Shown piece after piece: positions 5,340-61,704 of a DNA stretch of 64,000 bases. A program made the position numbers and the translations under genes. The DNA comes from a virus (Duplodnaviria; Heunggongvirae; Uroviricota; Caudoviricetes). The notes under the pieces are model-generated. The model worked only from the letters and a program-made list of their open reading frames with translations. It did not search any database and was not told the origin of the DNA. Each line of letters opens with the position of its first letter. Positions within the stretch are counted from its first letter, which is position 1. Location of the stretch: positions 27,133 to 91,132 of IMG/VR virus record IMGVR_UViG_3300050821_006962. One strand, 5' to 3'.

Positions 5340-5344
5340 AAACT

Positions 5345-5514: not shown

Positions 5515-5586
5515 TGGTTGCGCGATAGCCCGGGTTCTGTCTAGGACGAACATTCCTCTGAGCCAGCTACCCGACCTTCATCACGC
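5515..5586 (-). pseudogene. short tRNA-like element (no canonical T-loop)
   Basis: Good acceptor pairing GCGTGAT/ATCGCGC plus ACCA, but only 69 nt and no TTCGA loop. Confidence 0.25.
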
Positions 5587-5869: not shown

Positions 5870-5944
5870 TGGAGAACCGGGTCAGAGTCAAACTGACCAA
5901 TAGCGGGTTTGCAATCCGCCGCCTAATCGATTGGCTTCCGATTC
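5870..5944 (-). tRNA. tRNA-Cys(GCA)
   Basis: Anticodon arm GCGGATTGCAAACCCGC, near-identical to the E. coli Cys arm; discriminator U; CCA. Confidence 0.65.
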
Positions 5945-5949
5945 AAACT

Positions 5950-6035
5950 TGGTGCGCGTCGAGGGAGTCGGACCCTCACACCCAAAGGGGTAGCGCGTTT
6001 TAAGTGCGCCGCGTATGCCATTCCGCCACACGCGC
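5950..6035 (-). tRNA. tRNA-Leu(UAA)
   Basis: Type II; anticodon loop CTTAAAA; T-arm GAGGG-TCCGACT-CCCTC; acceptor GCGCGTG/GACGCGC. Confidence 0.65.
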
Positions 6036-6040
6036 AAAGC

Positions 6041-6181
6041 TTACTTGATGACCTCTAGCCACTGATAGCGAGTTCCGCAAGAGCAAGACGCCCAAACTTT
6101 TCTCATGCGATAGCCTGAGATAAATTTCTTGATTCGTCTCTTTACTCGATTAAATTTTTTACCACAAACGCAGGTCATCAT
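6041..6181 (-). CDS. small Zn-ribbon protein (46 aa), paralog of 5172-5339
   Basis: MMTCVCGKKFNRVKRRIKKF...SCSCGTRYQW; internal start of the 97-aa ORF-track entry, whose longer version would overlap tRNAs. Confidence 0.4.
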   Translation of the reverse strand: MMTCVCGKKFNRVKRRIKKFISGYRMRKVWASCSCGTRYQWLEVIK

Positions 6182-6187
6182 AAAACT

Positions 6188-6271
6188 TGGTCGCCCACCA
6201 CGGAGTCGAACCGTGACGCCCGAAGGCACGGGGTTTTGAATCCCGCGCGTCTGCCAGTTCCGCCAGCAGGC
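6188..6271 (-). tRNA. tRNA-Leu(CAA)
   Basis: Type II; anticodon loop TTCAAAA; variable arm TGCCTTCGGGCGT; T-arm CACGG-TTCGACT-CCGTG. Confidence 0.65.
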
Positions 6272-6279
6272 GATAAAAC

Positions 6280-6355
6280 TTGGAGGGCCACCGGGGAGTC
6301 GAACCCCGCTCCTAGCGTTCGTAGCGCTATGCAATTTCCGATATACGAGCAGCCC
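6280..6355 (-). tRNA. tRNA-Arg(ACG)
   Basis: Anticodon stem TAGCG/CGCTA with loop CTACGAA; T-arm CGGGG-TTCGACT-CCCCG. Confidence 0.65.
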
Positions 6356-6445
6356 TCAGAAATCGGAATCGTGTTTGCTCTGAACCACAGAGATTACCGC
6401 GCCTTGCAGCCGAAGCTGGCGAAGGACTTGACGCGACACAAATAT

Positions 6446-6523
6446 TGGAACACTCGGAGAGATTCGAACTCTCTTTGGTACGGGTTAGAACGCCGTTGGG
6501 ATATCCAGTTTCCCGACGAGTGC
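6446..6523 (-). tRNA. tRNA-Arg(UCU)
   Basis: D arm GGGA-AACTGGATA-TCCC; anticodon TTCTAA; T-arm GAGAG-TTCGAAT-CTCTC. Confidence 0.6.
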
Positions 6524-6669
6524 TCAGAAATTTTCGGGGTGCTGACGTGCCCTTAGACCGGAACCTTTTACGCGGGTCCGCACGGAGTGTGTCGCGAATC
6601 ACTTACGCGCTGGCTTAGGCAAGAAGACAGTACTCGTCCGTTCTCTGGCTCACGGAAGCCTTTGCAAAT

Positions 6670-6783
6670 TTACAGCGCGATGATTCGCGCGATGATTGGA
6701 TACTTACGGCAAACCCACAGCAGCACAAAAGGCGCTGCGGATGTGAACGAGACCGCAATCAGATACTTCTCGAAGAAGGTCAT
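6670..6783 (-). CDS. 37-aa hydrophobic membrane peptide
   Basis: GGGAGG RBS 5 nt upstream of the ATG at 6783; MTFFEKYLIAVSFTSAAPFVLLWVCRKYPIIARIIAL. Confidence 0.4.
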   Translation of the reverse strand: MTFFEKYLIAVSFTSAAPFVLLWVCRKYPIIARIIAL

Positions 6784-6844
6784 GAGAACCTCCCTTCTTA
6801 AATTTGGGCCGAGATTACAGCTCGACCCGCTCTACATGCAAACT

Positions 6845-6929
6845 TGGTACCCCGCACAGGAGTCGAACCTGCACGACCGAAGTCACTGGTTCCTAAGACC
6901 AGCGCGTCTCCCAATTCCGCCAACAGGGC
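6845..6929 (-). tRNA. tRNA-Leu(UAG)
   Basis: Type II; anticodon stem CTGGT/ACCAG with loop CTTAGGA; variable arm TGACTTCGGTCGT. Confidence 0.6.
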
Positions 6930-6930
6930 A

Positions 6931-7020
6931 CTGAAAATCTGCCGAGCGTTCTACCATTAAACTACGTGCGAGCAAGCTCACACGGCGGGACTCGAACCCG
7001 CACCTCTCAGCTCATCTGCC
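6931..7020 (-). other. tRNA 3' half followed by a tRNA 5' half (permuted order) joined by a perfect acceptor hairpin
   Basis: Minus RNA reads ...CUGAG-AGGU-GCGGG-UUCGAGU-CCCGC-CGUGUGA-G-CUUGC-UCGCACG-UA-GUUU-AAUGGUAG-AAC-G-CUCGG-CAGAUUUUCAG. The acceptor strands CGUGUGA/UCGCACG pair 7/7; GGCAGAU is duplicated in both halves. Confidence 0.4.
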
Positions 7021-7030
7021 ACCCGAACAA

Positions 7031-7360
7031 ATTGGTGGACTTAATTTCCGGGCGGATTTTATCAGCGCGAGCCGCCGTCCCGCATAGGGCACCTTTAGTG
7101 CCGAGTCCTATTGCCCCAAACCAGCATGCGAGGCCCCGTCAGGGAGCTACCCCGATAGGTTGATGGACTCTGTCGCGACAACATCTCCGTGGTAGGCGTG
7201 CCTTGACGCCTCGTTCCCCTTCGCACTTTCGTGCTCCGGTGTCCGTTCGCTCCCTAGAGAGCCGCGACCTCGCGCGCCCGAAGGCTACAGCCCCGAAGGG
7301 CCTGCGCTGTCCGCGACCCTGCAAGGGTCCGTAGTGGATAACCGAACGGCTCCACAAAAT
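7031..7360 (-). ncRNA. 330-nt GC-rich structured non-coding segment ending ...GUCCACCA
   Basis: No credible ORF; at least 6 perfect hairpins (GGCAC-CTTTA-GTGCC, GACCCT-GCA-AGGGTC, GGCGT-GCCTT-GACGCC, CCCGAAGGG x2, palindrome TGTCGCGACA); sits inside the tRNA operon. Confidence 0.35.
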
Positions 7361-7439
7361 TGGTCGAGAAAGCTGGATTCGAACCAGCGTGCCCTCGCTT
7401 CCGAAGCGAGTGAGATAAGCCAAACTCCTCTATTTCTCG
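7361..7439 (-). tRNA. tRNA-Pro(CGG)
   Basis: Perfect acceptor CGAGAAA/TTTCTCG; anticodon stem CTCGC/GCGAG with loop TTCGGAA; T-arm GCTGG-TTCGAAT-CCAGC. Confidence 0.6.
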
Positions 7440-7449
7440 ACAGTAAAAT

Positions 7450-7537
7450 TGGCTGGGGCAACAGGACTCGAACCTGTAATGAGCGCTAGCTCTGCCTGAT
7501 TAACAGTCAGGTGCTGTACCAATTGAGCCACACCCCA
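7450..7537 (-). tRNA. tRNA-Asn(GUU) with a 17-nt variable arm
   Basis: Anticodon arm CCTGA-CTGTTAA-TCAGG is identical to the E. coli Asn loop; extra hairpin CAGAGCTAGCGCTCATT in the variable region; discriminator G. Confidence 0.5.
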
Positions 7538-7546
7538 GTAGAAAAA

Positions 7547-7621
7547 TGGCGGAGATAACGGGAATCGAACCCGTACTTCATCCGTGACAGGGACGTGTCG
7601 TTACCAACTGACCCTATCTCC
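7547..7621 (-). tRNA. tRNA-Asp(GUC)
   Basis: Perfect acceptor GGAGATA/TATCTCC; anticodon loop CTGTCAC; T-arm ACGGG-TTCGATT-CCCGT. Confidence 0.65.
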
Positions 7622-7630
7622 GCTGAAAAA

Positions 7631-7719
7631 TGGTCGAGATAGAAGGATTCGAACCTCCGGGGCGTTGCCGCACTGGTTTCCAAAACCAGACCGCTACCAA
7701 GCTACGGACCTATACCTCG
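7631..7719 (-). tRNA. tRNA-Pro(UGG) with an expanded D region and a 14-nt variable arm
   Basis: Aligns with E. coli Pro(UGG) (AGCTTGGTAGCG, CTGGT-TTTGGAA-ACCAG, GGAGG-TTCGAAT-CCTTC) but carries insertions. Confidence 0.45.
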
Positions 7720-7833
7720 ACAGAAAATGTATACATCGTAGCAAACGTTTCGAACCGGACGCTTTCGCCACAACGGCAGGCCACGCAATGTAGCCTATGG
7801 TGTTTCACCCTTACGGATGACTTTGACATAGAC

Positions 7834-8031
7834 TCAGCCCACGCTTCTCGCCGAATTAGGCTCGCGAACCTGTAGCGTCTTTTCGGCAATCAGCAAGTAA
7901 ACTTTCGCGCTTTCCTCGACGTCGCCACTTAAGGCTAGGTGGACTATCTGCACGGTACTGACCCGTCGCTGGGCCAAGAAAATTATTGGTTCATTCATAA
8001 GTCGGAAAGCCAGTCGCAGCGGATGCGCCAT
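7834..8031 (-). CDS. hypothetical protein (65 aa)
   Basis: ORF track only; weak RBS. Confidence 0.25.
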   Translation of the reverse strand: MAHPLRLAFRLMNEPIIFLAQRRVSTVQIVHLALSGDVEESAKVYLLIAEKTLQVREPNSARSVG

Positions 8032-8053
8032 ACATTACCGTCCCAGTGCCCCG

Positions 8054-8125
8054 GGAGCTGGTGGGAGTCGAACCCACTCTGCCGCTTTGGTGGACTGTGA
8101 ACCAGCCGACCGCCCCGTGTTCATC
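8054..8125 (-). other. tRNA-like 3' element resembling a tmRNA 3' end (no full cloverleaf)
   Basis: GUGGG-UUCGACU-CCCAC-CAGCUCC, compared with E. coli ssrA GCGGG-UUCAACU-CCCGC-CAGCUCC-ACCA. Only about 40 nt upstream is pairable and no CCA is encoded. Confidence 0.3.
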
Positions 8126-8157
8126 ATGCGGTGATGAGCCGCCCACGGTTTGAACTC

Positions 8158-8349
8158 TTAAACCTTTCTGTGCTCGATTGGCGTGAGGTCTAACGTCGTC
8201 TCCGCGCCGCACTCGCAAACATATCTGTTGCCGGGTCGTCTCCGAACCGGGTCCCCGCATTCGGGGCATGAAATCAGCCGGGGTGGTTGCCCGACTCCGT
8301 TCTTCGCCGGAATCCATATTTCCGTTTCGAACGTTTCCATTGAACCCAT
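8158..8349 (-). CDS. Zn-ribbon protein (CPECG...CECG)
   Basis: ...LISCPECGDPVRRRPGNRYVCECGAETTLD; ATG at 8349 or 8340 lies inside or just after the -10 box of promoter 8348-8376, so it is possibly leaderless. Confidence 0.5.
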   Translation of the reverse strand: MGSMETFETEIWIPAKNGVGQPPRLISCPECGDPVRRRPGNRYVCECGAETTLDLTPIEHRKV

Positions 8350-8376
8350 CCTACCACACTTTCGAAACCTTGTCAA
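8348..8376 (-). promoter_or_regulatory. sigma70-like promoter (TTGACA-17-TAGGAT)
   Basis: Minus strand TTGACA (8371-8376), 17-nt spacer, TAGGAT (8348-8353). Confidence 0.5.
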
Positions 8377-8464
8377 GCTTTATTTTCGGGGCAGCTTTGG
8401 CTCGTGCTAGCTGCCCCTTGGAGGTGCAACTAATGCAAGGTGATGCTACTGCGATTCGAGAACC

Positions 8465-8493
8465 AGTCTAGCACAGTTCTCGAAACTTGTCAA
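8465..8493 (-). promoter_or_regulatory. sigma70-like promoter (TTGACA-17-TAGACT)
   Basis: Same architecture; the flanking sequence TTTCGAgAACtTGTCAAG is repeated from 8348-8376. Confidence 0.45.
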
Positions 8494-8508
8494 GTACTAT
8501 TTTAAACT

Positions 8509-8585
8509 TGGGGTGAAGTACGGGGGTCGAACCCGTGCCGAGGGATTCACAGTCCCCCGTGCTACCTTTACACTAACGACACCAC
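8509..8585 (-). tRNA. tRNA-His(GUG)
   Basis: Anticodon loop CTGTGAA; extra 5' G (G-1) opposite discriminator C73 as expected for His; T-arm ACGGG-TTCGACC-CCCGT. Confidence 0.6.
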
Positions 8586-50201: not shown

Positions 50202-50988
50202 AATATTCAGCTTTGGTTCCAATCGTCCGGACTTCATCGGTCTGCAACTGCGCTCGTTCCAGCGCCATCTGAAAGAGGACTTCGAGTTCGTAGTCTTCAA
50301 CAATGCGACCTACGACAACGGTGCGGGCGGAAACTACAACGGCCTCCACGAGCAGGCCAAGGCGCTCGGCATCCGGATGATTGATGTCGTGAAGGACCCC
50401 GGATTGGCGGAGCGCTGCCAGAAGATTGAGCTGAGCTGCCCGCTGTTTAATCCTCAAGGCTTGTATTCGAACGCCAACGTGGCGCACGCGTACGCGCTCT
50501 GCTGGGCGTGGGAGAACCACATCTCGAAAGAGCGCCAGCCGATTGCCATCTTCGACTCGGATGTCTTTCTGGTTGAGCCAGTGAGCCTGACCGAGATGAT
50601 GCTCCCTCACGTGATGCTCAACGTCCCGGACGGCAAGACTCACCAGCAAGACGGGCGCGTCTTCCGCTACATGTGGCCGACGTTCGTCGTGATGGATATG
50701 GCGCGGCTGCCGGACCCGGAAACCATGAACTGGTGGTGCGGCAGGGTGGAGAACACGCCCGTCGACGTGGGCGGGCAGACCTATCACTACTTCCAAGCGC
50801 ACCCGGACTTGGATGTTATTTCGGCTCGGAAGCTTCACCACACCGAGTTCAGCACCGATGAATTCTACTTGACAAAGGGCGACCAGTGTGCTACAGTACT
50901 ACACTACCGCTCCGGCAGCAACTGGGACCACCGCAGCCGAGAGTTCCACCAACAGAAAACCGAATGGCTGAAAGCGAGGATTGGATGA
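50194..50988 (+). CDS. hypothetical protein (possible glycosyltransferase, FDSDVF)
   Basis: ORF track. Confidence 0.35.
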   Translation: MLKIFSFGSNRPDFIGLQLRSFQRHLKEDFEFVVFNNATYDNGAGGNYNGLHEQAKALGIRMIDVVKDPGLAERCQKIELSCPLFNPQGLYSNANVAHAYALCWAWENHISKERQPIAIFDSDVFLVEPVSLTEMMLPHVMLNVPDGKTHQQDGRVFRYMWPTFVVMDMARLPDPETMNWWCGRVENTPVDVGGQTYHYFQAHPDLDVISARKLHHTEFSTDEFYLTKGDQCATVLHYRSGSNWDHRSREFHQQKTEWLKARIG

Positions 50989-51623
50989 GCGAAAAGATGT
51001 CCTTTGAAAACGCCCCCGGCTGCCACAGTGGGTCTCGGCTGGACGAGTTTTGCGCCATCATGCTTAACTTCAAGCACGGCGGCACCTACGTCGACATCGG
51101 CTCGGCGCATTCCAAGTTCCACAATAACTCGCACTTCCTCGACACGAAGCTCGGGTGGACCGGGTTATGCATCGAACTCGATAGTCAGTACAACAGCAGC
51201 TACACCGACCGGATAGGCTGCACGTATGTCAACGGTGATGCGACAAAGCTGGACTACGCCGAAGCGTTCAAGATGCTGGGAATGCCGAGGTCGATAGATT
51301 TCTTATCTCTCGATGTGGACGTGCTGGATTTGGAAGTCGCCAAGCTGGTGCTCAACACCGACTATCGCTTCAAGGTCATCGGCATCGAGCACGACGCGTA
51401 TCAGCACGGCGACCTGTATCGCGCGCCTCAAAGAGAATTTCTTTTGAGCAAGGGGTACGCGTTGGTTTGCTCCGACGTCTTTGTGCGCCATCCGGATTTC
51501 ATAAACTGCCCGTTCGAAGACTGGTACTTGGACCCGCAGCAGTTCGACAGCGACGTGATAGCGAAGGTGGAAAGCGATGCGTGCTATCCGGAAGATATTA
51601 TAGCGAGGCTAAATGGCCGTTAA
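50985..51623 (+). CDS. FkbM-family SAM-dependent methyltransferase
   Basis: GGTYVDIGSAHS. Confidence 0.5.
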   Translation: MSEKMSFENAPGCHSGSRLDEFCAIMLNFKHGGTYVDIGSAHSKFHNNSHFLDTKLGWTGLCIELDSQYNSSYTDRIGCTYVNGDATKLDYAEAFKMLGMPRSIDFLSLDVDVLDLEVAKLVLNTDYRFKVIGIEHDAYQHGDLYRAPQREFLLSKGYALVCSDVFVRHPDFINCPFEDWYLDPQQFDSDVIAKVESDACYPEDIIARLNGR

Positions 51624-52149
51624 GAAATCTTGGAGTCAGGTCGGTCAGGACTTATTTGCGCTGGAAAACTCAGGCGGAAATCAGACGTTCTTGGATATCG
51701 GGTGCATGGAGCCGTTCAGAGATAACAACACTTACATTTTAGACCGCGCAGGCTGGAAGGGTCTAGCGGTCGATTTTGAAAATTTGTTCATATCGACTTG
51801 GAATCAGTACCGAGCATGCCCCGCTATTTGTGCGAACGCGCTGAACGTTGATTGGCGTCACGAGCTTACGTCGCGCGGCTTACCGCTCGAAATTGGCTAC
51901 CTGTCTTTGGATTTATACGGCGAGGAGCTGGACGTGTTACACAATCTTGTGGCGGCGGGCGTTTCATTTCGCTGCGCCACTGTGGAGCACGACAGCATGG
52001 GCATCAAACTGGACCGCCGAGACGCGATTCGAGAGTTCATGCTTTCGCAGGGATACACGCTCGCGGTACCGGACGTGCTATCTCCGTCTTGCGTTATAAA
52101 TGAAGTAGAAGTAGGCAAGAGACCTTTTGAGGATTGGTGGACACGATGA
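51613..52149 (+). CDS. FkbM-family methyltransferase (second copy)
   Basis: GQDLF...FLDIGC. Confidence 0.5.
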   Translation: MAVKKSWSQVGQDLFALENSGGNQTFLDIGCMEPFRDNNTYILDRAGWKGLAVDFENLFISTWNQYRACPAICANALNVDWRHELTSRGLPLEIGYLSLDLYGEELDVLHNLVAAGVSFRCATVEHDSMGIKLDRRDAIREFMLSQGYTLAVPDVLSPSCVINEVEVGKRPFEDWWTR

Positions 52150-53132
52150 GCGGAAAAATAGGAATTTTTCTACCGGGGCTGAACGGCGACATTATGAGCG
52201 CGATGTCGGTGCTCAAATACAAAGACACGCTGTGGCCCGGGAAGGAAGTGGTTTGGTTCTGCGGAGAGCGATTCCGCGAGGTGTTGAACCACAACGATGC
52301 GATAGCCGAAGTTCGGCACTGGCCGGAAGGCTGGAAGCTGCCAGAGCGCTGCGTGTTGGAGAATCAGAGGATAGCCTCGGGCGAGTCCAAAGATTTGCCG
52401 TGGGCCGACTTTAGCATCTTGCTGGACAGCGAGAACCGTCTAAATGCCCGCAAGCATGAGTTTGAATCGACCAAAGATTTGGACGAAGGTTTCTTTCCCA
52501 CGCCTTGGATGATGAGTCTCGAACAGCGGCACGGGATTGATTATCCTAACATATCGCGAAAGGTGTTCCGCGCCGACTCGTCGTGGGAGTGGCACCCGTA
52601 TCTCGGATTTCTGGATGAGGAGCGCGAGGCGGTGAGAGCGTTCGCCGCTACGTTCCCGCACCCGAAGACGGTGATGCTGGAGACCAATTTCACGTCCGGC
52701 AAATCGCACTGGGACGATGACCTGACCCGGCAGACGATGGCGCTGTGCCGCCAGAAGCTCGGCAAGTGCAACTTCATTTTCGCGTGCGCGGGCGATTACT
52801 CACGATTCACCGACGATGCGGGCGTGCTTAACTGCAACAACTTCACGGTGAGACAGACCGCGCTCGTCAACAACTACGCCGATTTGTTCATCGGGATATC
52901 CAGCGGCATTTCGGTAGCGACCAGCTGTTGGGGTAACAAACCTACTCCGAAGCTGCAATACTGCGGCTCGTTCATTATGAGCACGTACTCGCTGGCGAAC
53001 GGGCCGATGGAGCTGGTGGTCGCTGACCCTCCGGGCCAGAACCCGCCGGAGCACGAGCGCCGCTTCCCGCCGAAGGCGAATCACCGCGCGGAGTACATAA
53101 GCAGACTGACCAGCATGCTGGGGAATCTATGA
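52134..53132 (+). CDS. GT9-like (heptosyltransferase-fold) glycosyltransferase
   Basis: C-terminal LFIGISSGISVATSC, compared with the GT9 motif DSGxxHLA. Confidence 0.4.
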   Translation: MVDTMSGKIGIFLPGLNGDIMSAMSVLKYKDTLWPGKEVVWFCGERFREVLNHNDAIAEVRHWPEGWKLPERCVLENQRIASGESKDLPWADFSILLDSENRLNARKHEFESTKDLDEGFFPTPWMMSLEQRHGIDYPNISRKVFRADSSWEWHPYLGFLDEEREAVRAFAATFPHPKTVMLETNFTSGKSHWDDDLTRQTMALCRQKLGKCNFIFACAGDYSRFTDDAGVLNCNNFTVRQTALVNNYADLFIGISSGISVATSCWGNKPTPKLQYCGSFIMSTYSLANGPMELVVADPPGQNPPEHERRFPPKANHRAEYISRLTSMLGNL

Positions 53133-53362
53133 AGATTACGGTAGGAAACCTGATTGACCAGCTGACCATCGCCAACATCCGAATCTGGATGGCGGAGGAT
53201 ATAAAGAGGAAGCCGGACGCTACCGACAAGCAGATTGCGGATGCGACCCGAGTGACCAACGTCGCCAACCAACAGCGGAACGACCTGATTCAGGCGATAG
53301 ACGAGGAGCTGGGCCAAAAATCCTACAAACAGGGAACGACGAAAATATATGGTAAAGATTAA
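53129..53362 (+). CDS. hypothetical protein
   Basis: ORF track. Confidence 0.4.
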   Translation: MKITVGNLIDQLTIANIRIWMAEDIKRKPDATDKQIADATRVTNVANQQRNDLIQAIDEELGQKSYKQGTTKIYGKD

Positions 53363-54554
53363 CAAGTGCCGAATCTGCGGTAACACGAATCTCCTCTGCG
53401 TACTTGATTTGGGCGAGCAAGTGCTCACAGGCGTATTCCCTAAGACAAGGGACGCCAAGATTACGAAGGGGCCGCTGCGCTTGGTAAAGTGCATCGGCAT
53501 GTGCGGTTTGCTGCAACTGGAACACTCGTACGACTCTTCTGAGATGTACGGAGAGAATTACGGGTATCGTTCCGGTTTGAACCCGAGCATGGTAGCCCAC
53601 CTGCAAGCAAAGGTCGCAAGAATTTTGAAGCAGACCCACCTGCTCCCGGGCGACATCGTCGTAGATATCGGCAGCAACGACGGGACCACGCTGCGAGCTT
53701 ATCCGGCCTTCCTGACTCGTATGGGCTTTGACCCGGCGGGTGCCAAGTTCGCCGAGTATTATCCGGAAGGCGTTCAGCTGGTCTCTGATTTCTTTTCCGC
53801 TGAGCTGCTGAAAAAGTACGGCAGAAGGAAGGTATCCGTTATCACGTCCTTCTCCATGTTCTACGACTTAGAAGACCCTACTCGCTTTATGAGGGATATC
53901 TACGAGGTCTTGGCTGATGATGGGATATGGGTGTTCGAACAAAGCTACATGCCTTCTATGCTGCAAACAGGCTCTTACGATACCGTCTGTCACGAGCATC
54001 TGGAATTCTACGCCTTAAAACAAATCGCGTGGATGGCAGACTTGGTCGGGTTCGTAATTCGTGATGTCGAACTCAATGACGTGAACGGCGGCAGTATTTC
54101 GGTCACTCTTTCCAAATACGGAAAAGAATCCGAGATGGTAAAAATACTTCTTGATAAAGAAGGGGAAGCCGGATATAATTATTTTGAACCCTTCTTATCC
54201 TTCGCAAAAAGAGCGGAGGAATCGAAGCTCGCCTTGCTCGCCTTTTTGCGCGATGCTCAACAGAATAACAAGACGGTGATGGCGCTCGGCGCGTCCACCA
54301 AGGGCAACGTCCTGCTCCAGTACTGCGGGCTGACCGAAAAAGATATCTCTTGCATCGGAGAGGTCAACTGTGATAAGGTAGGTTCTTATACGCCCGGTAC
54401 CGGGATACCAATCGTTTCGGAGGCCGAGGTGCTCGCCGCGAAGCCGGACTTCCTGATTGTCCTGCCGTGGCATTTCAAGAAGTTCTTTTTGGAGAACTGG
54501 AAGTACGCGAACCAAAATTTGATTTTTCCTTTACCTAAATTGGAGACTACATGA
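53349..54554 (+). CDS. C-methyltransferase-type SAM methyltransferase with an N-terminal Zn ribbon
   Basis: CRICGN...C...CGLLQ Zn domain plus [12 protein letters not shown] motif; architecture of sugar C-methyltransferases. Confidence 0.5.
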
Positions 54555-55579
54555 AAGCGCTGATTACAGGAATATCCGGGCAAGACGGCAGCTACCTCGC
54601 GGAGCTTCTGCTCTCCAAGGGCTACGAGGTTCACGGCGTGCTGCGTCGCGCTTCCAGCATTAACACGGAGCGCATCAAGCACATCCTGCCGGACCTGCAC
54701 ACCCACCTCGGTGACCTGTCCGATAGCCAATCAATTGAAAATGTTTTCGCGAAGCATACATTCGAAGAAGTCTATAATTTGGGAGCACAGAGCGACGTAC
54801 GCGCCAGCTTTGATGTTCCAGAGTACACAGGCGATGTCACCGGGCTAGGCGCGCTGCGACTCTTGGAGCTGTGCCGCGCGCACCGCAGCAAGTTTTACCA
54901 AGCGAGCAGCTCGGAACTATTCGGGAAGGCGCTGGAGACTCCGCAGTCCGAGAAGACTCCGTTCTATCCTCGCAGCCCTTACGGAGTCGCAAAGCAGTAC
55001 GCGTTCTGGTCGACCGTGAACTACCGCGAGAGCTATGACATGTTCGCGTGCAACGGTATCCTCTTCAACCACGAGAGTCCTCGCCGTGGCACTGGGTTCG
55101 TGACCCAGAAGATTACAAAGGCAGCGGTGAATATTTATCGAAAGAAACAGCTAGAACTGCGTTTGGGCAATTTGGATGCGCGCCGCGATTGGGGATATGC
55201 CAAGGATTACGTGGAAGGAATGTGGATGATGATGCAGCAGCCGAAGCCGGATGACTTCGTGCTCGCGACCGGGGAGACCCACTCCATCCGTGAATTTCTC
55301 GATGAGGCCTTTGACTATCTTCACATCGACTGGCATCAGCACGTCGCGATAGACCCGGAGCTTTATCGCCCTGCCGAAGTTGACCTGCTGCTCGGCGATG
55401 CATCGAAAGCGAAGCGCGTGCTCGGCTGGGAGCCGAAGGTGAAATTCAAGGAACTGGTCCGACTGATGGTGGATGCAGAACTATTCGGAGAAAGGCAGTT
55501 TTGTTCTTATTGTGGCGCAGGCACAGGTAGATTTCGACGATTCGGGGAAGGGACTTGTCCCAAGTGTGAAAAACAATGA
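54551..55579 (+). CDS. gmd: GDP-mannose 4,6-dehydratase
   Basis: [29 protein letters not shown] is the canonical Gmd N-terminus. Confidence 0.7.
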
Positions 55580-56205
55580 ACTTTTACCTCATTTCCGACA
55601 CGCACTTCAAGCATGACGCAATGAAGACATACTGCGTACGCCCATCGAATTTTACGGAGCTGACACATAAAAATGTCATGAATACCGTGACCGAGAAGGA
55701 CACCCTGATTCACCTCGGCGATGTCGGCATCGGCAAGCACGACGCGTGGGAGTGGATAATCCGCGAATGGCCCTGCCGTAAGATTCTAATTCGAGGCAAC
55801 CACGACCGCAATCACTCGTGCTCGTGGTGGATGGAGCACGGCTTCGATTTTGCGTGCGATTCTATGGTCTTCCGCAAGGTGCTGCTCACGCATGAGCCAG
55901 CAAATGCGGTCATCAAATCGGATGGACATCGTCCATACGGCTCTCTTGACGCTGGTCTGCCAGAAGGTTGTGAATTGAATGTGCATGGTCACCTCCACAA
56001 TATTTGGGATGGATTTCATCGTCCAGAACGAATCGAACGAGACAAGGAATTGCTCGGTATCGATTTTACGAAGCGATTGAAACACTCATGGCAGCGTCTT
56101 TTCGCACTCGAATACACCAGCTACGCGCCCGTTGAGTTTAACAAGTTCATTTCACATCCGGAACGATATCAGGCGACCGGGCCAAAAACACATGCCGGAA
56201 TATAA
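55576..56205 (+). CDS. calcineurin-like metallophosphoesterase
   Basis: ISDTHF...GDVG...GNHD. Confidence 0.55.
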
Positions 56206-56365
56206 ACGCGCCCAAGGAATAATTGAACGTCGCTGCGACGAGTGTAAAGAAGAAAACGGCATTCAGCCCGGACAGCGAAAACGAGTAAGATGTTCCTGCT
56301 GTAAAAAGCTTCTTTGTCGTAAATGTCATACGAAACATACGGAGATAGAAAATGGCGGACTTTAG
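56192..56365 (+). CDS. Zn-ribbon mini-protein
   Basis: CDEC...CSCC...CRKCH. Confidence 0.35.
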   Translation: MPEYKRAQGIIERRCDECKEENGIQPGQRKRVRCSCCKKLLCRKCHTKHTEIENGGL

Positions 56366-56867
56366 AACAGCAGTGAACATCACGATGGACGCGAACCACG
56401 AAGGCGGCTACCAGTGTTTGCGCGGCGACAAAGGCAACTGGACCGGAGGCGAGGTCGGCGTGGGGGAGTTGAAGGGCACGAAGTACGGTATCAGCGCCCG
56501 CGAGTTCCCCAACGAGGATATCGTGAATCTTACGATGGACCGGGCTGCGGAGCTTTACCGGGAAGGCTACTGGAAGCCCCTCTACAGCCAGATTAATGAC
56601 CAGCAACTGGCTAACAAACTCTTTGACCTCGGCGTCTTATTTGGCGTCAATACCGCCGTGAAGATGCTGCAAATCACGATGGAGAATAAAATCGCAATCG
56701 TGTCGGACGGCGTCTTCGGACCCAACACGCTCGCGACGCTGAATCAGCTGGAGAATCTTCTCCCGGCTTACAAGGCCGCCTTCTTGAATCATGTGATGAA
56801 TGTGGTTAACAACAACCCCGGAGAAGCGCAGTTTCTGAGCGACTGGGTCCGCAGGATTAATTCGTGA
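56352..56867 (+). CDS. GH108-family lysozyme (endolysin)
   Basis: EGGY...KGNWTGG...GTKYGI GH108 signature plus a C-terminal PG-binding-like region. Confidence 0.6.
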   Translation: MADFRTAVNITMDANHEGGYQCLRGDKGNWTGGEVGVGELKGTKYGISAREFPNEDIVNLTMDRAAELYREGYWKPLYSQINDQQLANKLFDLGVLFGVNTAVKMLQITMENKIAIVSDGVFGPNTLATLNQLENLLPAYKAAFLNHVMNVVNNNPGEAQFLSDWVRRINS

Positions 56868-57229
56868 CTTGGATTATGCCAGAATGGGTTCCGGGATTGA
56901 AGCACCCGATGACGCCTCGCACGGTCTTCATGAACTGCTACGAGATAGACAAGGTGCGCCGAGTCTTGATGGCGCGCTGCAAAATCTGCGGCCACACAGT
57001 CTCCAAGGACGAGAAGGCAGTCAAAGAGCTGATGTATCGCTGCGACAAGAGCACATTCTGCGGGTGTGGAGAGTTCAAGACCCATCAGGTTTGTAGTCTC
57101 TGTTACGACATGTTTCACGCTTTGTACGCGAACTACTTAATGAAGAATCGCAACTACTTCAAAGACATGGATGATAAGCGGCGCGCAGAGTGGGAAGGAT
57201 ACAAAAAGAGGGAAAATGGCACAACATAA
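56864..57229 (+). CDS. Cys-rich hypothetical protein
   Basis: ORF track. Confidence 0.45.
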   Translation: MTWIMPEWVPGLKHPMTPRTVFMNCYEIDKVRRVLMARCKICGHTVSKDEKAVKELMYRCDKSTFCGCGEFKTHQVCSLCYDMFHALYANYLMKNRNYFKDMDDKRRAEWEGYKKRENGTT

Positions 57230-57449
57230 GCTATCAACGGCTGTCTTCGCACAAGGCTGGCTGGAAGGCCAGTTCGAAACTATGGTCGCTCGCAGCGCAG
57301 AAAAAGCGGACGAAGACCCGACCGTTCACTTGGTCGCTACTCAGGTTCTGGAACAGTGGAACATCGTGAGCAACGCGTTTGACCAGCTCGTAAAAGAGAA
57401 CGCGGAGCTGGAGCGCCGTCTCGCGCTGGTGAAAGCCGCAGTACTCTGA
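57216..57449 (+). CDS. hypothetical protein
   Basis: AGAGGG RBS. Confidence 0.4.
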   Translation: MAQHKLSTAVFAQGWLEGQFETMVARSAEKADEDPTVHLVATQVLEQWNIVSNAFDQLVKENAELERRLALVKAAVL

Positions 57450-57742
57450 TGTCGTCTCCGTCCGAATGGTATAGCCGAGCTTATGCCAAGGAATGGACTC
57501 AGTGTGCTCGAAAACAGCTCATAACTAGCAAGGAAGAGGCAAATGTTCGAGCGCGAGCGATGCAAGAAAAGTATCGACAAGTTTTTAATTCTTACCAGTG
57601 TCCCTTTTGCGGCGGCTTTCACGTGGGCAGAATAGGCCCCGCTAAGGAAAAAAGATATCTACAAAATAGAGTTAAACAGCTCAACAACGCTTTCCAAATT
57701 TTGACTCCACGCTGGATGGAAGACTGGACTAGGGTACTGTGA
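57449..57742 (+). CDS. hypothetical protein (CPFCGG)
   Basis: ORF track. Confidence 0.45.
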   Translation: MSSPSEWYSRAYAKEWTQCARKQLITSKEEANVRARAMQEKYRQVFNSYQCPFCGGFHVGRIGPAKEKRYLQNRVKQLNNAFQILTPRWMEDWTRVL

Positions 57743-58287
57743 ACCTCCGCTGGGACGCGACCTTCCGCAGATTTATCGCGGAGTTCTCCTCTGATTTCCA
57801 AGGGGACCTTGCTGCCGTCAAGGCCGCAGGGTTCAAGCCGGATACCTCCACGGGCGCATGGGTCTGGTGGACCGGGAAGGCCGCGCCGCTCACCAAACTC
57901 CGCGAGAATCGTCCCGCCAGCGGGCTGACTATCACTCCGGAGGCCCGGGAGCAGTACACGCCGCTCGCCGCAATGGAAGCGAAGAACGCCGAGATAAAAA
58001 CCGCCGCCGCAAAGGCCAACAAAGAACTCAAGAAGACGCTCGGTCTGGTGGAGGCGAAGACTCCGCTCGTGATTCCTGAGAAAGGCTACATCGACGCATC
58101 TGACCTCCCGCCTCTGCCACCCTCCGAAAATCCCTACGTTCGTCCTCCCGAAGACCCCACCGCCCCCAGATGCTGCATCTGTAAAGCGCTCATAGAAATG
58201 TTCTTGTATGGGGACGATGAGCCTCGCCCGGTCGCCTGCTTATACTGCCAGAAAAAAGTGCTTGACAATGTCACAGAGGTATGTTAG
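57739..58287 (+). CDS. hypothetical protein
   Basis: ORF track. Confidence 0.5.
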   Translation: MNLRWDATFRRFIAEFSSDFQGDLAAVKAAGFKPDTSTGAWVWWTGKAAPLTKLRENRPASGLTITPEAREQYTPLAAMEAKNAEIKTAAAKANKELKKTLGLVEAKTPLVIPEKGYIDASDLPPLPPSENPYVRPPEDPTAPRCCICKALIEMFLYGDDEPRPVACLYCQKKVLDNVTEVC

Positions 58288-58290
58288 TCT
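58262..58290 (+). promoter_or_regulatory. promoter TTGACA-17-TAGTCT
   Basis: Followed by the shared leader CTTCATGAAAGGTAGG. Confidence 0.5.
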
Positions 58291-58312
58291 CTTCATGAAA
58301 GGTAGGTGCGTT

Positions 58313-58546
58313 ATGGAAAAATTTATCGCAGCGGCGATGGTTGTAGTTATTGCGTTGGCTCTCTTGTTTGGATTGGCCCTTCTTATGGCTTATCCCACCA
58401 TGTGGAGCGTGAACTATTTGTTCAGCGCGCAGCTTCTCTTTTTCGTGTTCGGCACCGCCAAGATTGGCTTTTGGCAAGCGTTTGTGCTTAACATGTTTTT
58501 CGGCATCGCGTTCAATCAGAACTCTAGCTCATCGAAATCGAAATAG
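58313..58546 (+). CDS. holin-like membrane protein (2 TM helices)
   Basis: AAAGGTAGG RBS; MEKFIAAAMVVVIALALLFGLALLMAYP... Confidence 0.45.
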   Translation: MEKFIAAAMVVVIALALLFGLALLMAYPTMWSVNYLFSAQLLFFVFGTAKIGFWQAFVLNMFFGIAFNQNSSSSKSK

Positions 58547-58548
58547 TT

Positions 58549-58577
58549 CTTGACAGGGTTTTGAAAGCGTGTTAGCA
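58549..58577 (+). promoter_or_regulatory. promoter TTGACA-17-TAGCAT
   Basis: Same leader ATTCATGAAAGGTAGG as the preceding promoter. Confidence 0.5.
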
Positions 58578-58599
58578 TATTCATGAAAGGTAGGGAACT

Positions 58600-58929
58600 G
58601 TGGACATTCATGCGGTCGCAGAGAAGTATCTGCAAGACATCCAGAGCGGAAAGGTCGTCTTTTACGAGCGTGACCATAAGCCGGAGCTGATGCACGCTCA
58701 TAAGCTCGCGCCGGAGCGCGTCGTGGTCGTGAGAGAAGAAGCTCCCCACTACTTGGCGGGCGTTAAGCCGTCCGGTCGTGTGGTCTGGACCCACTGCATG
58801 AGGCTCGCAGCATCTTACAATCATCCGTCGGCGGCGCTCGGCTCCGTGCTGGAGCGGATGGACGTTTATCAGATTCCGGTCGACACGATGCCCGCGTGCT
58901 GGTTCTCGAATCACCAGCATGGCTCATAA
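58600..58929 (+). CDS. hypothetical protein
   Basis: GTG start after AAAGGTAGGG. Confidence 0.45.
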   Translation: MDIHAVAEKYLQDIQSGKVVFYERDHKPELMHAHKLAPERVVVVREEAPHYLAGVKPSGRVVWTHCMRLAASYNHPSAALGSVLERMDVYQIPVDTMPACWFSNHQHGS

Positions 58930-59107
58930 CTGCCGATTACAGGGCAAGAACGGGGAGCTGCTCTACATCTGCTCTCGATGCGGCGAGTGCTACGTTTGCA
59001 AGCACAAGGCGGTTCACTTCACGGAGGAAGACGTCTGGCGGTGGAAGCGGAAGAACGGGAAGTATGAGGAAGTCATCTGTGATGGTCGGCTGAGAAGTGG
59101 CAGTTAA
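58919..59107 (+). CDS. Zn-ribbon mini-protein
   Basis: CSRCGECYVC. Confidence 0.4.
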   Translation: MAHNCRLQGKNGELLYICSRCGECYVCKHKAVHFTEEDVWRWKRKNGKYEEVICDGRLRSGS

Positions 59108-59132
59108 GGCGCTGTTAACTGACAGGAGACTT

Positions 59133-59312
59133 ATGGCACTCACCCCTTGGCAAAAGGCATTTGGAAGAGATTTTCCGGGCGCACCAAACGACAACAGAAC
59201 TCCGGAACAAAAATCTACTGATTTTATTCTAGCTATTCAAAGATGCCCGGATTGTTCTGAAAAGTACGGTTTGTGTGGTTTTCACGAAGAACAAAAGCCA
59301 GTTGGCAGTTAA
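59133..59312 (+). CDS. small Cys-containing protein
   Basis: AGGAGA RBS. Confidence 0.4.
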   Translation: MALTPWQKAFGRDFPGAPNDNRTPEQKSTDFILAIQRCPDCSEKYGLCGFHEEQKPVGS

Positions 59313-59338
59313 GGTATATTAAATGACAGGAGGAAGTC

Positions 59339-59683
59339 ATGAGCGAATTTGTTCAAAATTTTTCCAGCGTGGATGACATCGTCGACAGCTATGGAGGCAC
59401 CTCGCAAGAAGATTTGAGCGGTGCAATCATCCACCTCGCGTGGTACGGCTACGGGAGCTATAACGGCAGCAGCCTCGTGGTCTACGAAAAGGAAGGCAAG
59501 CTGTTCGAGGTCAACGGTTCGCACTGTTCTTGTCACGGACTGGAAGAACAGTGGCAGCCGGAAGAGACCACGCTCGCCGCGCTCGCGATGCGTGATATCA
59601 GCGATGGCGAGTACGATGGGAGCGGCGAAGCTCAAAAAGTTTTGGCAGCTTTTATTGCATCCAAATCAGGAGGTGTAAATTGA
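59339..59683 (+). CDS. hypothetical protein
   Basis: AGGAGG RBS. Confidence 0.5.
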   Translation: MSEFVQNFSSVDDIVDSYGGTSQEDLSGAIIHLAWYGYGSYNGSSLVVYEKEGKLFEVNGSHCSCHGLEEQWQPEETTLAALAMRDISDGEYDGSGEAQKVLAAFIASKSGGVN

Positions 59684-60018
59684 AACCGCAAAAGAAGGCT
59701 CCGGCTCTCACGCCGGAACAGCAGGCCGAAATCCTCGCCACAAAACAGAAGGCGCAGGAAGAGGCTCAGAAGGAACGGGAGCGCGTCGAGCTGTACGGCA
59801 AGTCCGTACAGAAGATGTCGCACCGTCAGTTGAGCGCGGAGCTGCGGAAGACGATTCGCCGGGAGCACACGGGTCGGCCTCCCCAGCCGCAAGCCGGGTT
59901 GACCATTTTGTACGCCTCGATTCTTTCCACGATTCTGGACAGCACCAGAACCAGCATGGACAAGCCTCGTCCGGACCAGATTAACCCGAACGGGCGGCTG
60001 TACGCCTATCCACGCTAA
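59680..60018 (+). CDS. hypothetical protein
   Basis: coupled. Confidence 0.45.
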   Translation: MKPQKKAPALTPEQQAEILATKQKAQEEAQKERERVELYGKSVQKMSHRQLSAELRKTIRREHTGRPPQPQAGLTILYASILSTILDSTRTSMDKPRPDQINPNGRLYAYPR

Positions 60019-60101
60019 TGTGGGAGCTGCTCTGCCCCCAGCACGGTATCCCGGCCTTCCTTATGTGGGCCGTGTTGGGCGGCGACCCGCAAATTTTGTG
60101 C

Positions 60102-60130
60102 TTGACATTTCAAATCTATCGTGATAAGGT
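60102..60130 (+). promoter_or_regulatory. promoter TTGACA-17-TAAGGT
   Basis: Upstream of 60155. Confidence 0.45.
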
Positions 60131-60154
60131 GACTTCGTTAATCAGGAGGATTGC

Positions 60155-60400
60155 ATGAGCGTGGCACAAGATTTGTTTCTCGGTCTGGTCGGCTCGGTCG
60201 AAGCAGGCATCTTGACACCAGAAGAGGCGGTGACCGAACTCGCCGAGTTGAAGCAGGAGTACGGTTTCTATTCGGAGTACACGCTCGAAGACTTCCAACG
60301 GCTTCGAACAAATTATCTCTCCAAGCTGGAATCGGAGGAAGATAACGATTATTACGAAGACGATTTCAGATACGACGAGGATGAAGAGGACGACGAATGA
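60155..60400 (+). CDS. acidic small protein
   Basis: AGGAGG RBS. Confidence 0.5.
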   Translation: MSVAQDLFLGLVGSVEAGILTPEEAVTELAELKQEYGFYSEYTLEDFQRLRTNYLSKLESEEDNDYYEDDFRYDEDEEDDE

Positions 60401-61704
60401 GCTTGCCAAACGAAAAGATGGTCGGGAAGAATTACAACGTGATTGTCCCTGAAACTGGTGTGCCAATCAAAATTTGGAACAAGCACGTTAAGGTTGAGGA
60501 ACAAGCAATTCAACAGCTGAAAGACGTGGCTTCTATGTCTTTTGTGAAGCCTTATGTCGCAGCAATGAGTGATTGCCACTGGGGTATGGGCGCGACGGTC
60601 GGCTCCGTTATCCCGACGGTGGGCGCTGTGATGCCCGCTGCGGTCGGCGTGGATATCGGCTGCGGGATGATGGCTGTCCGCACAAATCTCAAATGGCGAC
60701 AAGCAGCTCCCGAAGACGGAATTTTCGAGATATACGATTACAAGCGCATGTTCGAGGCAATCTCGAAGGCGGTACCGCACGGTCGCACCGACAACGGCGG
60801 CGCGAGAGATATCGGCGGCTGGGGTACGGTCCCGACTGACATCGCAGGAATATGGGAGAAAGAATTCGCCGCGCCTTACGATGAGCTTTGTCGGAAGCAC
60901 CCGGGCGCGTTATCGAAGAATGCGGAGCGCCATCTCGGCACACTCGGCACCGGGAACCACTTCATCGAGGTCTGCACCGAAATCGACAACCCGGACTCTA
61001 ACCTTTGGGTGGTCATCCACTCCGGCTCTCGCGGACTGGGCAATCGCATCGGCACATATTTCACCAAGCTGGCCGGAGACCTTTGCAAGACGTGGGGCGT
61101 CCAGCTCCCGAACAAGGACCTCGGGTATCTCCCGGTCGGCACCAGTCAGTACGACGATTACATCACGGCGATTACGCTGGCGCAGAAGTTTGCGTGGCAC
61201 AATCGCATCATCATGATGGAGCGCGTGCTGAAAGCTATCGGTGCAGAGCAGGATGGTAACGAGCAAATTGACGGCTTCAATGTCACTCCCTCGATTATCC
61301 ACATGCACCATAACTATATGACACAGATTTGCTTCGGCGGTCTTGACATCAACCTGACTCGCAAGGGCGCGGTCGACGCGAGCCACGGCAATTGGGTCAT
61401 CATCCCCGGTTCGATGGGCGCGAAGACCTACATCGCTCGCGGGCTGGGCAACAAGGAATCGTTCTGCTCTTGCTCCCACGGCGCAGGCCGCGCAATGAGC
61501 CGAACGCAGGCTTTGAAGACGTTCACGGTCGGGGACCACGAGGCGGCAACGGCAGGCGTGTACTGCGACAAGACACGCGCCGTGCTCGACGAAACGCCAG
61601 CCGCGTACAAAGACATCGATGCGGTGATGGAATCGCAGCGCGACCTAGTTGAGCCCGTTTTGAAAATCAAGCAGTTGGTATGTGTCAAAGGATTGAGCGA
61701 TTAA
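60397..61704 (+). CDS. rtcB: RtcB RNA 3'-phosphate/5'-OH ligase
   Basis: SHGAGRAMSR and His-rich metal-binding motifs; RtcB-like length. Confidence 0.65.
   Translation: MSLPNEKMVGKNYNVIVPETGVPIKIWNKHVKVEEQAIQQLKDVASMSFVKPYVAAMSDCHWGMGATVGSVIPTVGAVMPAAVGVDIGCGMMAVRTNLKWRQAAPEDGIFEIYDYKRMFEAISKAVPHGRTDNGGARDIGGWGTVPTDIAGIWEKEFAAPYDELCRKHPGALSKNAERHLGTLGTGNHFIEVCTEIDNPDSNLWVVIHSGSRGLGNRIGTYFTKLAGDLCKTWGVQLPNKDLGYLPVGTSQYDDYITAITLAQKFAWHNRIIMMERVLKAIGAEQDGNEQIDGFNVTPSIIHMHHNYMTQICFGGLDINLTRKGAVDASHGNWVIIPGSMGAKTYIARGLGNKESFCSCSHGAGRAMSRTQALKTFTVGDHEAATAGVYCDKTRAVLDETPAAYKDIDAVMESQRDLVEPVLKIKQLVCVKGLSD

Follow-up and report, generated by a model that had tools for sequence, protein, structure and literature searches.

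The 64,000-nucleotide (nt) stretch of phage DNA analysed here, hereafter the window, corresponds to positions 27,133 to 91,132 of the IMG/VR virus record IMGVR_UViG_3300050821_006962 (Caudoviricetes). The gene of interest is rtcB (60397..61704, plus strand), which encodes an RtcB-family 3'-phosphate/5'-hydroxyl RNA ligase of 435 amino acids and was identified from its open reading frame (ORF), its Pfam, PHROG and PDB matches and a structural model. Towards the other end of the window, the minus strand carries an array of transfer RNA (tRNA) genes (2499..8582), within which lie a shortened RNase P RNA (5510..5799) and, tentatively, a Y-RNA-like tRNA mimic (6922..7022). The role of the ligase and its possible relation to the tRNA genes are considered below.

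The RtcB ligase

The rtcB ORF runs uninterrupted from ATG to TAA. Residues 40-432 of its product cover the whole of the Pfam profile PF01139 (RtcB; 1-426 of 426) with 355.1 bits and an expectation value (E) of 8.6e-106, the Pfam cutoff being 27 bits. PHROG 1075, 'tRNA splicing ligase', is matched with 422 bits. Sequence searches of the PDB return RtcB proteins alone, namely T. thermophilus TTHA1785, P. horikoshii RtcB and human RTCB (E 4e-32 to ~1e-24). The AlphaFold2 model, for which 30 homologs were supplied, has a mean predicted local distance difference test (pLDDT) value of 90.5 and a predicted template modelling (pTM) score of 0.90. When this model is compared with the PDB by Foldseek, the 16 significant matches are all RtcB structures (E 6e-31 to 6e-22, template modelling (TM) score 0.64-0.76) and the first match outside the family appears only at E 0.08. 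The best match is 4dwq_A, an RtcB complex with guanosine monophosphate (GMP) and Mn2+ (E 6e-31, TM 0.73), and human RTCB is matched at TM 0.74-0.76.

The active site is preserved. Alignment to P. horikoshii RtcB, in which the ligands of the two-Mn2+ site are Asp95, Cys98, His203, His234 and His329, places their equivalents at D86, C89, H188, H208 and H304/H305, so that the predicted metal ligands are Asp86, Cys89, His188, His208 and His305. The predicted guanylylation site, His361, sits in the motif SHGAGR, which aligns with CHGAGR of PH1602; the covalent His-GMP nucleophile is His404 in P. horikoshii and His337 in E. coli. Further active-site equivalents are D59, H61, N187, N306 and K431. All of these residues are invariant in an alignment of 81 sequences, made up of the window RtcB and 80 viral homologs at 45-54% identity. 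The first-pass annotation of this DNA had called an RtcB ligase with exactly these coordinates, and had named a lack of the conserved Cys/His metal and GMP-binding residues as one result that would refute its reading; none of them is missing, and the full-length Pfam match, the fold and the complete set of residues all agree with it. By these measures the gene is a genuine, complete RtcB RNA ligase. Since the protein is complete and its active site intact, it is expected to join 3'-phosphate or 2',3'-cyclic-phosphate ends to 5'-OH ends.

Placement within the family is less specific. The score against the E. coli-type equivalog (NF007153/PRK09588) is 165 bits, below the cutoff of 407, and that against the PrfH-associated RtcB2 family (TIGR03073, release_rtcB) is 129.7 bits, below the cutoff of 271.8. 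The top NCBIfam match is to an RtcB-related family whose members contain an intein, and it covers the extein part.

The tRNA gene array

With default settings, ARAGORN reports 29 tRNA genes, all on the minus strand and all with an encoded 3' CCA (29/29). Rfam adds a tRNA-Cys. A relaxed threshold yields five more minus-strand tRNAs that are in register within the gaps of the array, three of which end in CCA. The array, with its 29 confident genes, therefore totals 30 to 34 tRNAs, which makes the initial estimate of about 33 a fair one, and all 20 amino acids are represented. It had also been argued that the presence of Lys, Glu, Gln and Arg species, targets of anticodon nucleases, speaks for tRNA repair. 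This argument carries no weight, because the array covers every amino acid. The gene order of the array is the same in a related contig, L330.

Neither split nor permuted tRNAs occur among the array tRNAs, and no self-cleaving ribozyme or group I intron reaches the Rfam thresholds in the window. Three minus-strand genes, tRNA-Met(cat) (4441-4529), tRNA-Asn(gtt) (7450-7537) and tRNA-Pro(tgg) (7631-7719), are 88-89 nt long and carry type-II-like variable-arm hairpins. Long variable arms are unusual for these identities, and the 88-nt Asn and Pro tRNAs are kept in L330. Introns were considered as the source of the extra length and discarded: ARAGORN with introns permitted gave a single implausible call, and the additional nucleotides form the variable-arm hairpins.

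Association of rtcB with tRNA genes across genomes

Phage-encoded RtcB is widespread. Homologs occur in 685 of 50,697 GenBank phage records, 624 of them covering at least 80% of the query, and the commonest hosts of these phages include Mycobacterium, Bacillus, Listeria, Brevibacterium, Caulobacter, Halorubrum and Gordonia. Phage rtcB is thus a common and already described feature, to which the window gene adds a divergent, intact member.

The genomic surroundings of the gene were compared in 80 IMG/VR loci with same-clade RtcB homologs, at most 10 kb of flanking DNA being included for each locus. Flanking tRNA genes are present in 31 of the 80 loci, and in 16 a tRNA gene lies within 300 bp of rtcB. 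The tRNA density is 0.62/kb in the first 300 bp versus 0.09-0.15/kb per bin from 300 bp to 10 kb, which corresponds to an approximately six-fold enrichment beside the gene. Nearly all flanking tRNAs (156/167) are on the rtcB strand, and those that abut the gene are mostly Pro(UGG), Lys, Arg, Gln and Glu. On the other hand, in 80 loci of the same clade from bacteria and metagenome-assembled genomes the near-gene density is 0.04/kb, with a tRNA within 300 bp in two. In viral genomes, no other kind of gene recurs as often beside this RtcB clade as tRNA genes do, and a tRNA-related role is therefore favoured. The co-oriented juxtaposition of rtcB and tRNA genes, found in viral and not in bacterial loci, strengthens the published prediction of phage tRNA repair.

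An array is not a prerequisite for phage rtcB, because the gene occurs also in small single-tRNA phages. An example is Corynebacterium phage Bran (44 kb), where the one tRNA gene of the genome lies ~540 bp downstream of rtcB. Among the lineage relatives of the window phage that were read, no tRNA genes lie less than 10 kb from rtcB.

Search for repair partners

Partners of the ligase were sought among ~85 ORFs of the window with Pfam or PHROGs, ~27 kb of the likely 91-kb genome lying outside. Found among these ORFs were neither RtcA cyclase, RtcR (sigma54-activator domain) or archease, nor Pnkp, an ATP-dependent RNA ligase (Rnl), a 2H phosphoesterase or a CCA-adding enzyme, nor a Ro/Rsr (TROVE domain) protein or RnpA. 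The RtcA or Pnkp partner suggested as a follow-up search by the first-pass annotation was therefore not found in the window. The two largest unannotated proteins of the window gave no Ro-like PDB matches, and no release-factor domain, as expected of a PrfH-type partner, was found among the neighbours of rtcB.

Comparison with other loci was equally unproductive. When 19 window neighbours were searched by tblastn against the 80 IMG/VR rtcB loci almost nothing was matched, and clustering of 2058 rtcB-neighbouring ORFs yielded no widespread partner. The top neighbour cluster was rejected as an antisense artefact that overlaps the rtcB end. The window thus holds no corroborating RNA-repair module. 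This absence is compatible with function, because RtcB requires no end-healing enzyme.

An RNase P RNA inside the tRNA array

The array encloses, on its own strand, a shortened bacterial type-A RNase P RNA of ~290 nt (5510..5799, minus strand; Rfam RF00010, 102 bits, E 4.7e-30), separated by 71 nt from the preceding tRNA-Cys and by 4 nt from the following tRNA-Lys(ctt). The score lies just above the gathering score of 100, and the model is matched whole (1-367) by the ~290 nt. Both P4 strands, GAGGAAGUUCCGGGC and ACAGAACCCGGGCUA, are retained, as is the combination of J18/2 AGGAAUG and the L15 motif CGGGUAG, the latter pairing with the 3' CCA of tRNA. The preserved CCA-binding L15 motif fits the encoded CCA of the array tRNAs. 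P18 is missing. The specificity domain is divergent, with unaligned sequence in place of its conserved J11/12-J13/14 modules. A consensus structure was computed with RNAalifold from eight sequences, the window RNA and seven RNase P RNAs from viral contigs. P1, P2, P3, P5, P8, P9 and P15 are recovered, 50 of 65 pairs are compensatory, and the window RNA conforms. Its minimum free energy z-score (-1.24) is uninformative.

Compared with bacterial type-A RNase P RNA (RF00010), the window RNA is alike in both P4 strands, the L15 GGU motif and helices P1-P5, P8, P9 and P15. It differs in its length (~290 nt against ~350-400 nt), in lacking P18, in being phage-encoded amid tRNA genes and in having no RnpA in the window. 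On these features it is a member of the class A RNase P RNAs, with catalysis as a prediction.

Other viral RNase P RNAs were retrieved from IMG/VR by a pattern search whose matches were then scored with Rfam. They lie at 4030-4350 of contig L095 (463 kb, 208 bits), 4462-4786 of L145 (101 kb, 209 bits), 512-862 of L111 (171 kb, 181 bits), 6402-6752 of L177 (34 kb, 181 bits) and 6583-6880 of L170 (202 kb, 173 bits). In L095, L145, L111 and L177 tRNA genes lie within ~10 nt on either side of the RNA. For the stored stretch of L170 no tRNA is reported, and a group I intron match occurs at 3325-3528. An RNase P RNA amid tRNA genes therefore looks like a recurrent feature of tRNA-rich phages. The variant of conserved region I (CR-I) found in the window RNA, GGAGGAAGTTCCGGGC, gave chance matches only in viral contigs and among the matches listed for metagenome contigs, and blastn of the window RNA against GenBank phages gave nothing. 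GenBank phage matches to the other viral RNase P RNAs were discarded, as they are mislabelled bacterial records only. In the literature, no description of a phage-encoded RNase P RNA was found, and RNase P is unmentioned in the papers on jumbo and huge phages that were found. The motif pair characteristic of RNase P-like RNAs occurs in 0 of 169 rtcB loci, so that in these loci no RNase P RNA accompanies rtcB.

The RNase P RNA in the array is a more consequential and more unusual lead than rtcB itself. If it is functional, such phages would bring their own ribozyme for the 5' maturation of tRNAs, and the naturally minimised forms would allow the limits of specificity-domain reduction to be probed.

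Y-RNA-like and other RNAs of the array

Directly 5' of tRNA-Leu(tag) lies a tentative Y-RNA-like (YrlA-type) tRNA mimic (6922..7022, minus strand). The match to Rfam RF02553 has 32.7 bits (E 2.9e-5), under the gathering score of 69. By eye, a closing stem, a T arm, a 7-8-bp acceptor-like stem with a CUUG loop and a D arm can be drawn, which is the tRNA-mimic layout of bacterial Y RNAs. In L330 a syntenic match, also sub-threshold (7789-7944, 28.9 bits), is placed just 5' of tRNA-Leu(UAG) and has the same topology with differing stem and D-arm sequences. The identification as a Y RNA is suggestive at these scores.

Where the array has a gap without tRNA genes, two further non-coding blocks are near-identical in the window and L330, whereas their flanks have diverged. 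The first covers ~135 nt just 3' of tRNA-Pro(CGG) (~7236..7360, minus strand), and the second spans ~7040-7085 on the same strand. Both form GC-rich hairpins with CUUCGG-type loops and neither has an Rfam match. They are candidates for a novel structured RNA.

Proposed role of the ligase and alternatives

With moderate confidence, the window RtcB is proposed to be a stand-alone, seal-only ligase that restores RNase-nicked tRNAs during infection and complements the tRNA supply of the array. His361 would be guanylylated by guanosine triphosphate (GTP) with Mn2+, as in characterised RtcB proteins. The GMP would then pass to the RNA 3'-phosphate, any 2',3'-cyclic phosphate having been opened beforehand, and the 5'-OH end would attack the activated end and reseal the strand, with no need of a separate healing enzyme. 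The substrates would be host or phage RNAs, above all tRNAs, nicked by metal-independent ribonucleases that leave cyclic-phosphate/5'-OH ends. Such nicks could come, for example, from anticodon nucleases of the PrrC/RloC type, from colicin-like tRNases or from toxins of the HEPN or MazF type. Resealing would in this way complement the phage's own 30-34 tRNAs. We infer both tRNAs as the substrate and counter-defence as the purpose. Support comes from the RtcB identity and intact active site, from purifying selection with conserved synteny, from the co-carriage of rtcB with the array, from the family-wide juxtaposition of rtcB and tRNA genes in viral genomes, which same-clade bacterial loci lack, and from the position of the one tRNA gene of phage Bran close to rtcB. 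That no healing partner was found is consistent with direct sealing. The Salmonella rsr-yrlBA-rtcBA operon is a bacterial precedent, which the YrlA-like element of the array may echo.

The general idea is not new. Iyer et al. 2021 (PMC7824862, section 3.4.9) proposed that RtcB ligases, by resealing cleaved tRNAs, supplement the tRNAs encoded by phages, and that tRNA provisioning and RNA repair together counter host attack on the translation apparatus. The two-pronged replacement and repair of tRNAs put forward by the first-pass annotation is therefore already in print. It is supported in part, by the family-level juxtaposition and by the intact RtcB; this genome itself gives no link between the gene and the array. 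The accompanying list of nucleases (PrrC, colicin, VapC and RloC) is weakened by VapC, whose inclusion is doubtful since PIN-domain nucleases are metal-dependent.

Several observations weigh against the proposed role. Although rtcB was initially described as accompanying the array, the two share one genome but not a locus: the array is ~52 kb off, on the opposite strand and in another gene block, with rtcB in a lysis/accessory block. Because of this arrangement, evidence of local linkage or co-expression of rtcB and the array is absent here. The adjacency counts in other viruses include near-duplicate metagenomic loci (L008/L012/L042; L034/L036), and adjacency could reflect the clustering of accessory genes and tRNAs in the same regions. 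As neither the E. coli-type nor the PrfH-linked NCBIfam cutoff is reached, the protein belongs, on its profile scores, to an uncharacterised subfamily to which substrate preference is not confidently transferable, and the sequence gives no guide to substrate specificity. Activities vary among RtcB paralogs; Myxococcus RtcB3, for instance, caps 5'-phosphate ends. No experimental work on any phage RtcB was found in the literature. A scan of bacterial-genome contigs with the window RtcB gave matches of at most 53% identity in many phyla and no prophage relatives, and thus no indication of the host. Finally, many tRNA-targeting defences probably leave ends that RtcB cannot join. PARIS, Septu, retron PtuAB and OLD tRNA-cutting defences employ Toprim or HNH nucleases, whose expected 3'-OH/5'-phosphate products would not be sealable by RtcB and would be countered by tRNA supply instead. 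The published rescue from such defences is indeed by phage tRNAs (PMC11555353, PMC13096335).

The separation of rtcB from the array would be natural if the enzyme served general RNA repair, an explanation that is unlikely and nevertheless the best of the alternatives. RtcB would reseal any cyclic-phosphate break, for example in ribosomal RNA cut by colicin E3- or MazF-type enzymes, much as bacterial PrfH-RtcB2 repairs ribosomes, or in phage mRNAs cut by HEPN, Cas13 or Csm6-type RNases, and the array would be an unrelated codon-supply or decoy device. The occurrence of rtcB in many few-tRNA phages (Bran and other phages of Mycobacterium, Brevibacterium and Corynebacterium) is in line with it. 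So is the bacterial RtcB2, which repairs damaged ribosomes (PMC9304027). However, the window protein stays below the PrfH-linked cutoff (129.7 vs 271.8) with no release-factor-like neighbour found, and the six-fold tRNA enrichment beside viral rtcB points to tRNAs.

The same enrichment, in which rtcB adjoins tRNA genes in other phages, could also be read as a sign of phage RNA maturation. In archaea and metazoa, RtcB acts as the ligase of tRNA splicing, and the array holds unusual RNAs (the RNase P RNA, the YrlA-like mimic and the conserved 135-nt element). The ligase would then join or circularise transcripts after programmed cleavage, such as intron-containing or permuted tRNAs, ribozyme-processed RNAs or the Y-RNA-like element. 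It would thus be an enzyme of RNA biogenesis and not of repair, which is improbable. The array has no intron-containing, split or permuted tRNA, its long tRNAs being explained by variable-arm hairpins, and self-cleaving ribozymes and group I introns at Rfam thresholds are lacking in the window. Moreover, RNase P products end in 5'-phosphate and 3'-OH and are not joinable by RtcB.

Quenching of an alarm is a further alternative, and quite an improbable one. RtcB would consume tRNA halves and other RNAs with 2',3'-cyclic-phosphate ends that are read by RtcR-type CARF sensors as a sign of damage and so blunt a secondary host response, with translation rescue as a secondary effect. Such ends could signal an attack on the translation apparatus (PMC7824862). 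The proposal is purely inferential, with no support in the window, and its chemistry and substrates equal those of tRNA repair, so that the two are hard to separate. Very improbable is a function at DNA ends, in which RtcB would seal or cap 3'-phosphates produced by host nucleases or replication: the window is rich in DNA-metabolism genes, but rtcB lies ~16 kb downstream of the replication module (30.8-44.6 kb), past the lysis genes, and the family-level association is with tRNA genes.

The proposed tRNA-repair role can be extended, more doubtfully, to a self-contained kit for tRNA production and maintenance of which RtcB would be one part. In such a kit the ~30-34 CCA-encoding tRNA genes would be combined with a minimised RNase P ribozyme that cuts the array transcript and with a Y-RNA-like tRNA mimic, maybe a decoy or scaffold, and RtcB would reseal the tRNAs nicked by host nucleases. 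If true, phage translation would be largely independent of the host's tRNA supply, processing and repair, and phage-encoded RNase P RNAs in tRNA arrays would be a trait that recurs among large phages and has gone undescribed so far.

Comparison with known RtcB and tRNA-repair systems

The closest known proteins are the phage RtcBs of PHROG 1075 (Ralstonia RP12/RP31, Pseudomonas Psa21 and pf16, Mesorhizobium Cp1R7A-A1), usually annotated as RtcB or tRNA-splicing ligase. They share with the window protein the family, length and active site as well as carriage by large phages, with 46-50% identity over 94-99% of the protein. The identity ceiling is ~50% to GenBank phage proteins and 54% to IMG/VR proteins.

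The RtcB of E. coli and Salmonella, encoded in the rtcBA operon, is alike in fold, catalytic residues and the predicted direct-sealing chemistry. The window protein is under the corresponding equivalog cutoff and phage-borne, with no RtcA, RtcR or Rsr in the window. The Salmonella enzyme has a documented tie to tRNAs cleaved in the anticodon loop: the rsr-yrlBA-rtcBA operon is induced by 2',3'-cyclic-phosphate tRNA halves and is implicated in damaged-tRNA repair (PMC7790460). The window may share the Y-RNA-like element, but its rtcB is not in an operon with it, unlike in Salmonella.

Among structures, P. horikoshii RtcB (4dwq, 1uc2) and human RTCB are the top matches (TM 0.73-0.76), and their Asp-Cys-His metal sites and His-GMP site align with those of the window protein. 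Identity is 22-24%, the window RtcB is ~45-70 residues shorter, and no archease gene is nearby, whereas the archaeal and human enzymes need archease for turnover. These enzymes splice tRNA introns, of which the window array holds none.

The pair of T4 Pnkp and Rnl1 against PrrC is alike in the proposed logic, in that a phage enzyme restores tRNAs cut by an abortive-infection nuclease. In T4 a kinase-phosphatase heals the ends before an ATP-dependent ligase acts, whereas RtcB would seal directly with GTP, and the proteins are unrelated. The likeness is one of working principle and not of membership, as Pnkp/Rnl homologs were not found in the window.

Phage lineage and retention of rtcB

No cellular housekeeping genes occur among the scanned ORFs, as expected of phage DNA. 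The window encodes a primase-helicase, a split family-A-like DNA polymerase, a helicase, a T5 A1-like DNA-transfer protein, endonuclease VII, a GH108 endolysin, an SprT-like protein and a sugar-nucleotide gene cluster. Megablast of positions 58000-64000 against GenBank phages gave no matches, and the phage has no close relative there. On the other hand, a search of 5.8 billion proteins returned one 97%-identical RtcB and a graded series at 55-80% identity, encoded on metagenomic contigs of up to 100 kb. The DNA of contig L201 is 99.5% identical to window positions 50397..61703, and that of L202 and L203 is ~70% identical.

The gene order common to L201, L202 and L203 is a sugar or glycosyltransferase cassette, a metallophosphoesterase, the GH108 endolysin, small ORFs and rtcB. 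In the longer contigs L202 and L203, rtcB is followed on its 3' side by an SPFH gene or a LAGLIDADG homing endonuclease and then by an integrase, and the downstream region of L202 also contains an SprT-like gene and NAPRTase. In the window, rtcB is placed between the lysis cassette and an SPFH gene. Because of this shared gene order, rtcB is a stable gene of a lineage of roughly 90-100-kb soil phages. The ratio of nonsynonymous to synonymous substitutions (dN/dS) is 0.10-0.15 in four pairwise comparisons, the close pair having a dS of 0.14, and rtcB is held under purifying selection. Both synteny and purifying selection were seen in RtcB relatives at 71-97% identity.

Neighbouring genes and minor observations

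Promoter and terminator scans around rtcB gave background levels. Immediately upstream lies an ORF for a very acidic protein of 81 amino acids (60155..60400, plus strand; isoelectric point ~4.05, Asp/Glu-rich tail), which is also called in L201. Since its stop codon overlaps the rtcB start (ATGA), it is probably translated together with rtcB. Downstream, a small plus-strand ORF (61680-61931) encodes 83 amino acids with 11 cysteines in CxxC-like motifs. For neither flanking ORF did Pfam or PHROG give a match, and the 80 IMG/VR loci contain no homolog of either beside rtcB.

A mosaic boundary is apparent at the 3' end of rtcB (61450-61704 and downstream). All amino-acid differences between the window RtcB and the L201 protein (12/12) fall within residues 354-430, and the two DNAs part directly after the rtcB stop codon. 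In L203 and L204 a LAGLIDADG homing-endonuclease gene overlaps the end of rtcB. Because of this overlap, and because the top NCBIfam match is to intein-containing RtcB relatives, rtcB seems to attract selfish elements.

A calcineurin-like metallophosphoesterase (55576..56205, plus strand; PF12850, PHROG 547) is encoded 4.2 kb upstream of rtcB and is kept 4-5 kb upstream of it in L201, L202 and L203. In unrelated viral contigs such a gene lies directly downstream of rtcB (L049, L061, L063) or ~1.4 kb upstream (L077). It is the sole recurrent protein neighbour of rtcB, and it may serve the ligase as a partner in RNA-end processing.

The sugar-nucleotide cluster (48374-55579, plus strand) comprises an RmlD-like reductase, a Polysacc_synt_2 dehydratase, a C-methyltransferase and a GDP-mannose 4,6-dehydratase. 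L202 and L203 have a different cassette at this position, with 4-5 glycosyltransferases and a DegT aminotransferase. The cluster is therefore an exchangeable module for glycan or DNA modification. The DNA polymerase is split over two adjacent plus-strand ORFs (32873-34102 and 34245-35372) with a 142-nt gap, which match successive parts of the PHROG 17 profile, 675-1003 and then 1010-1231.

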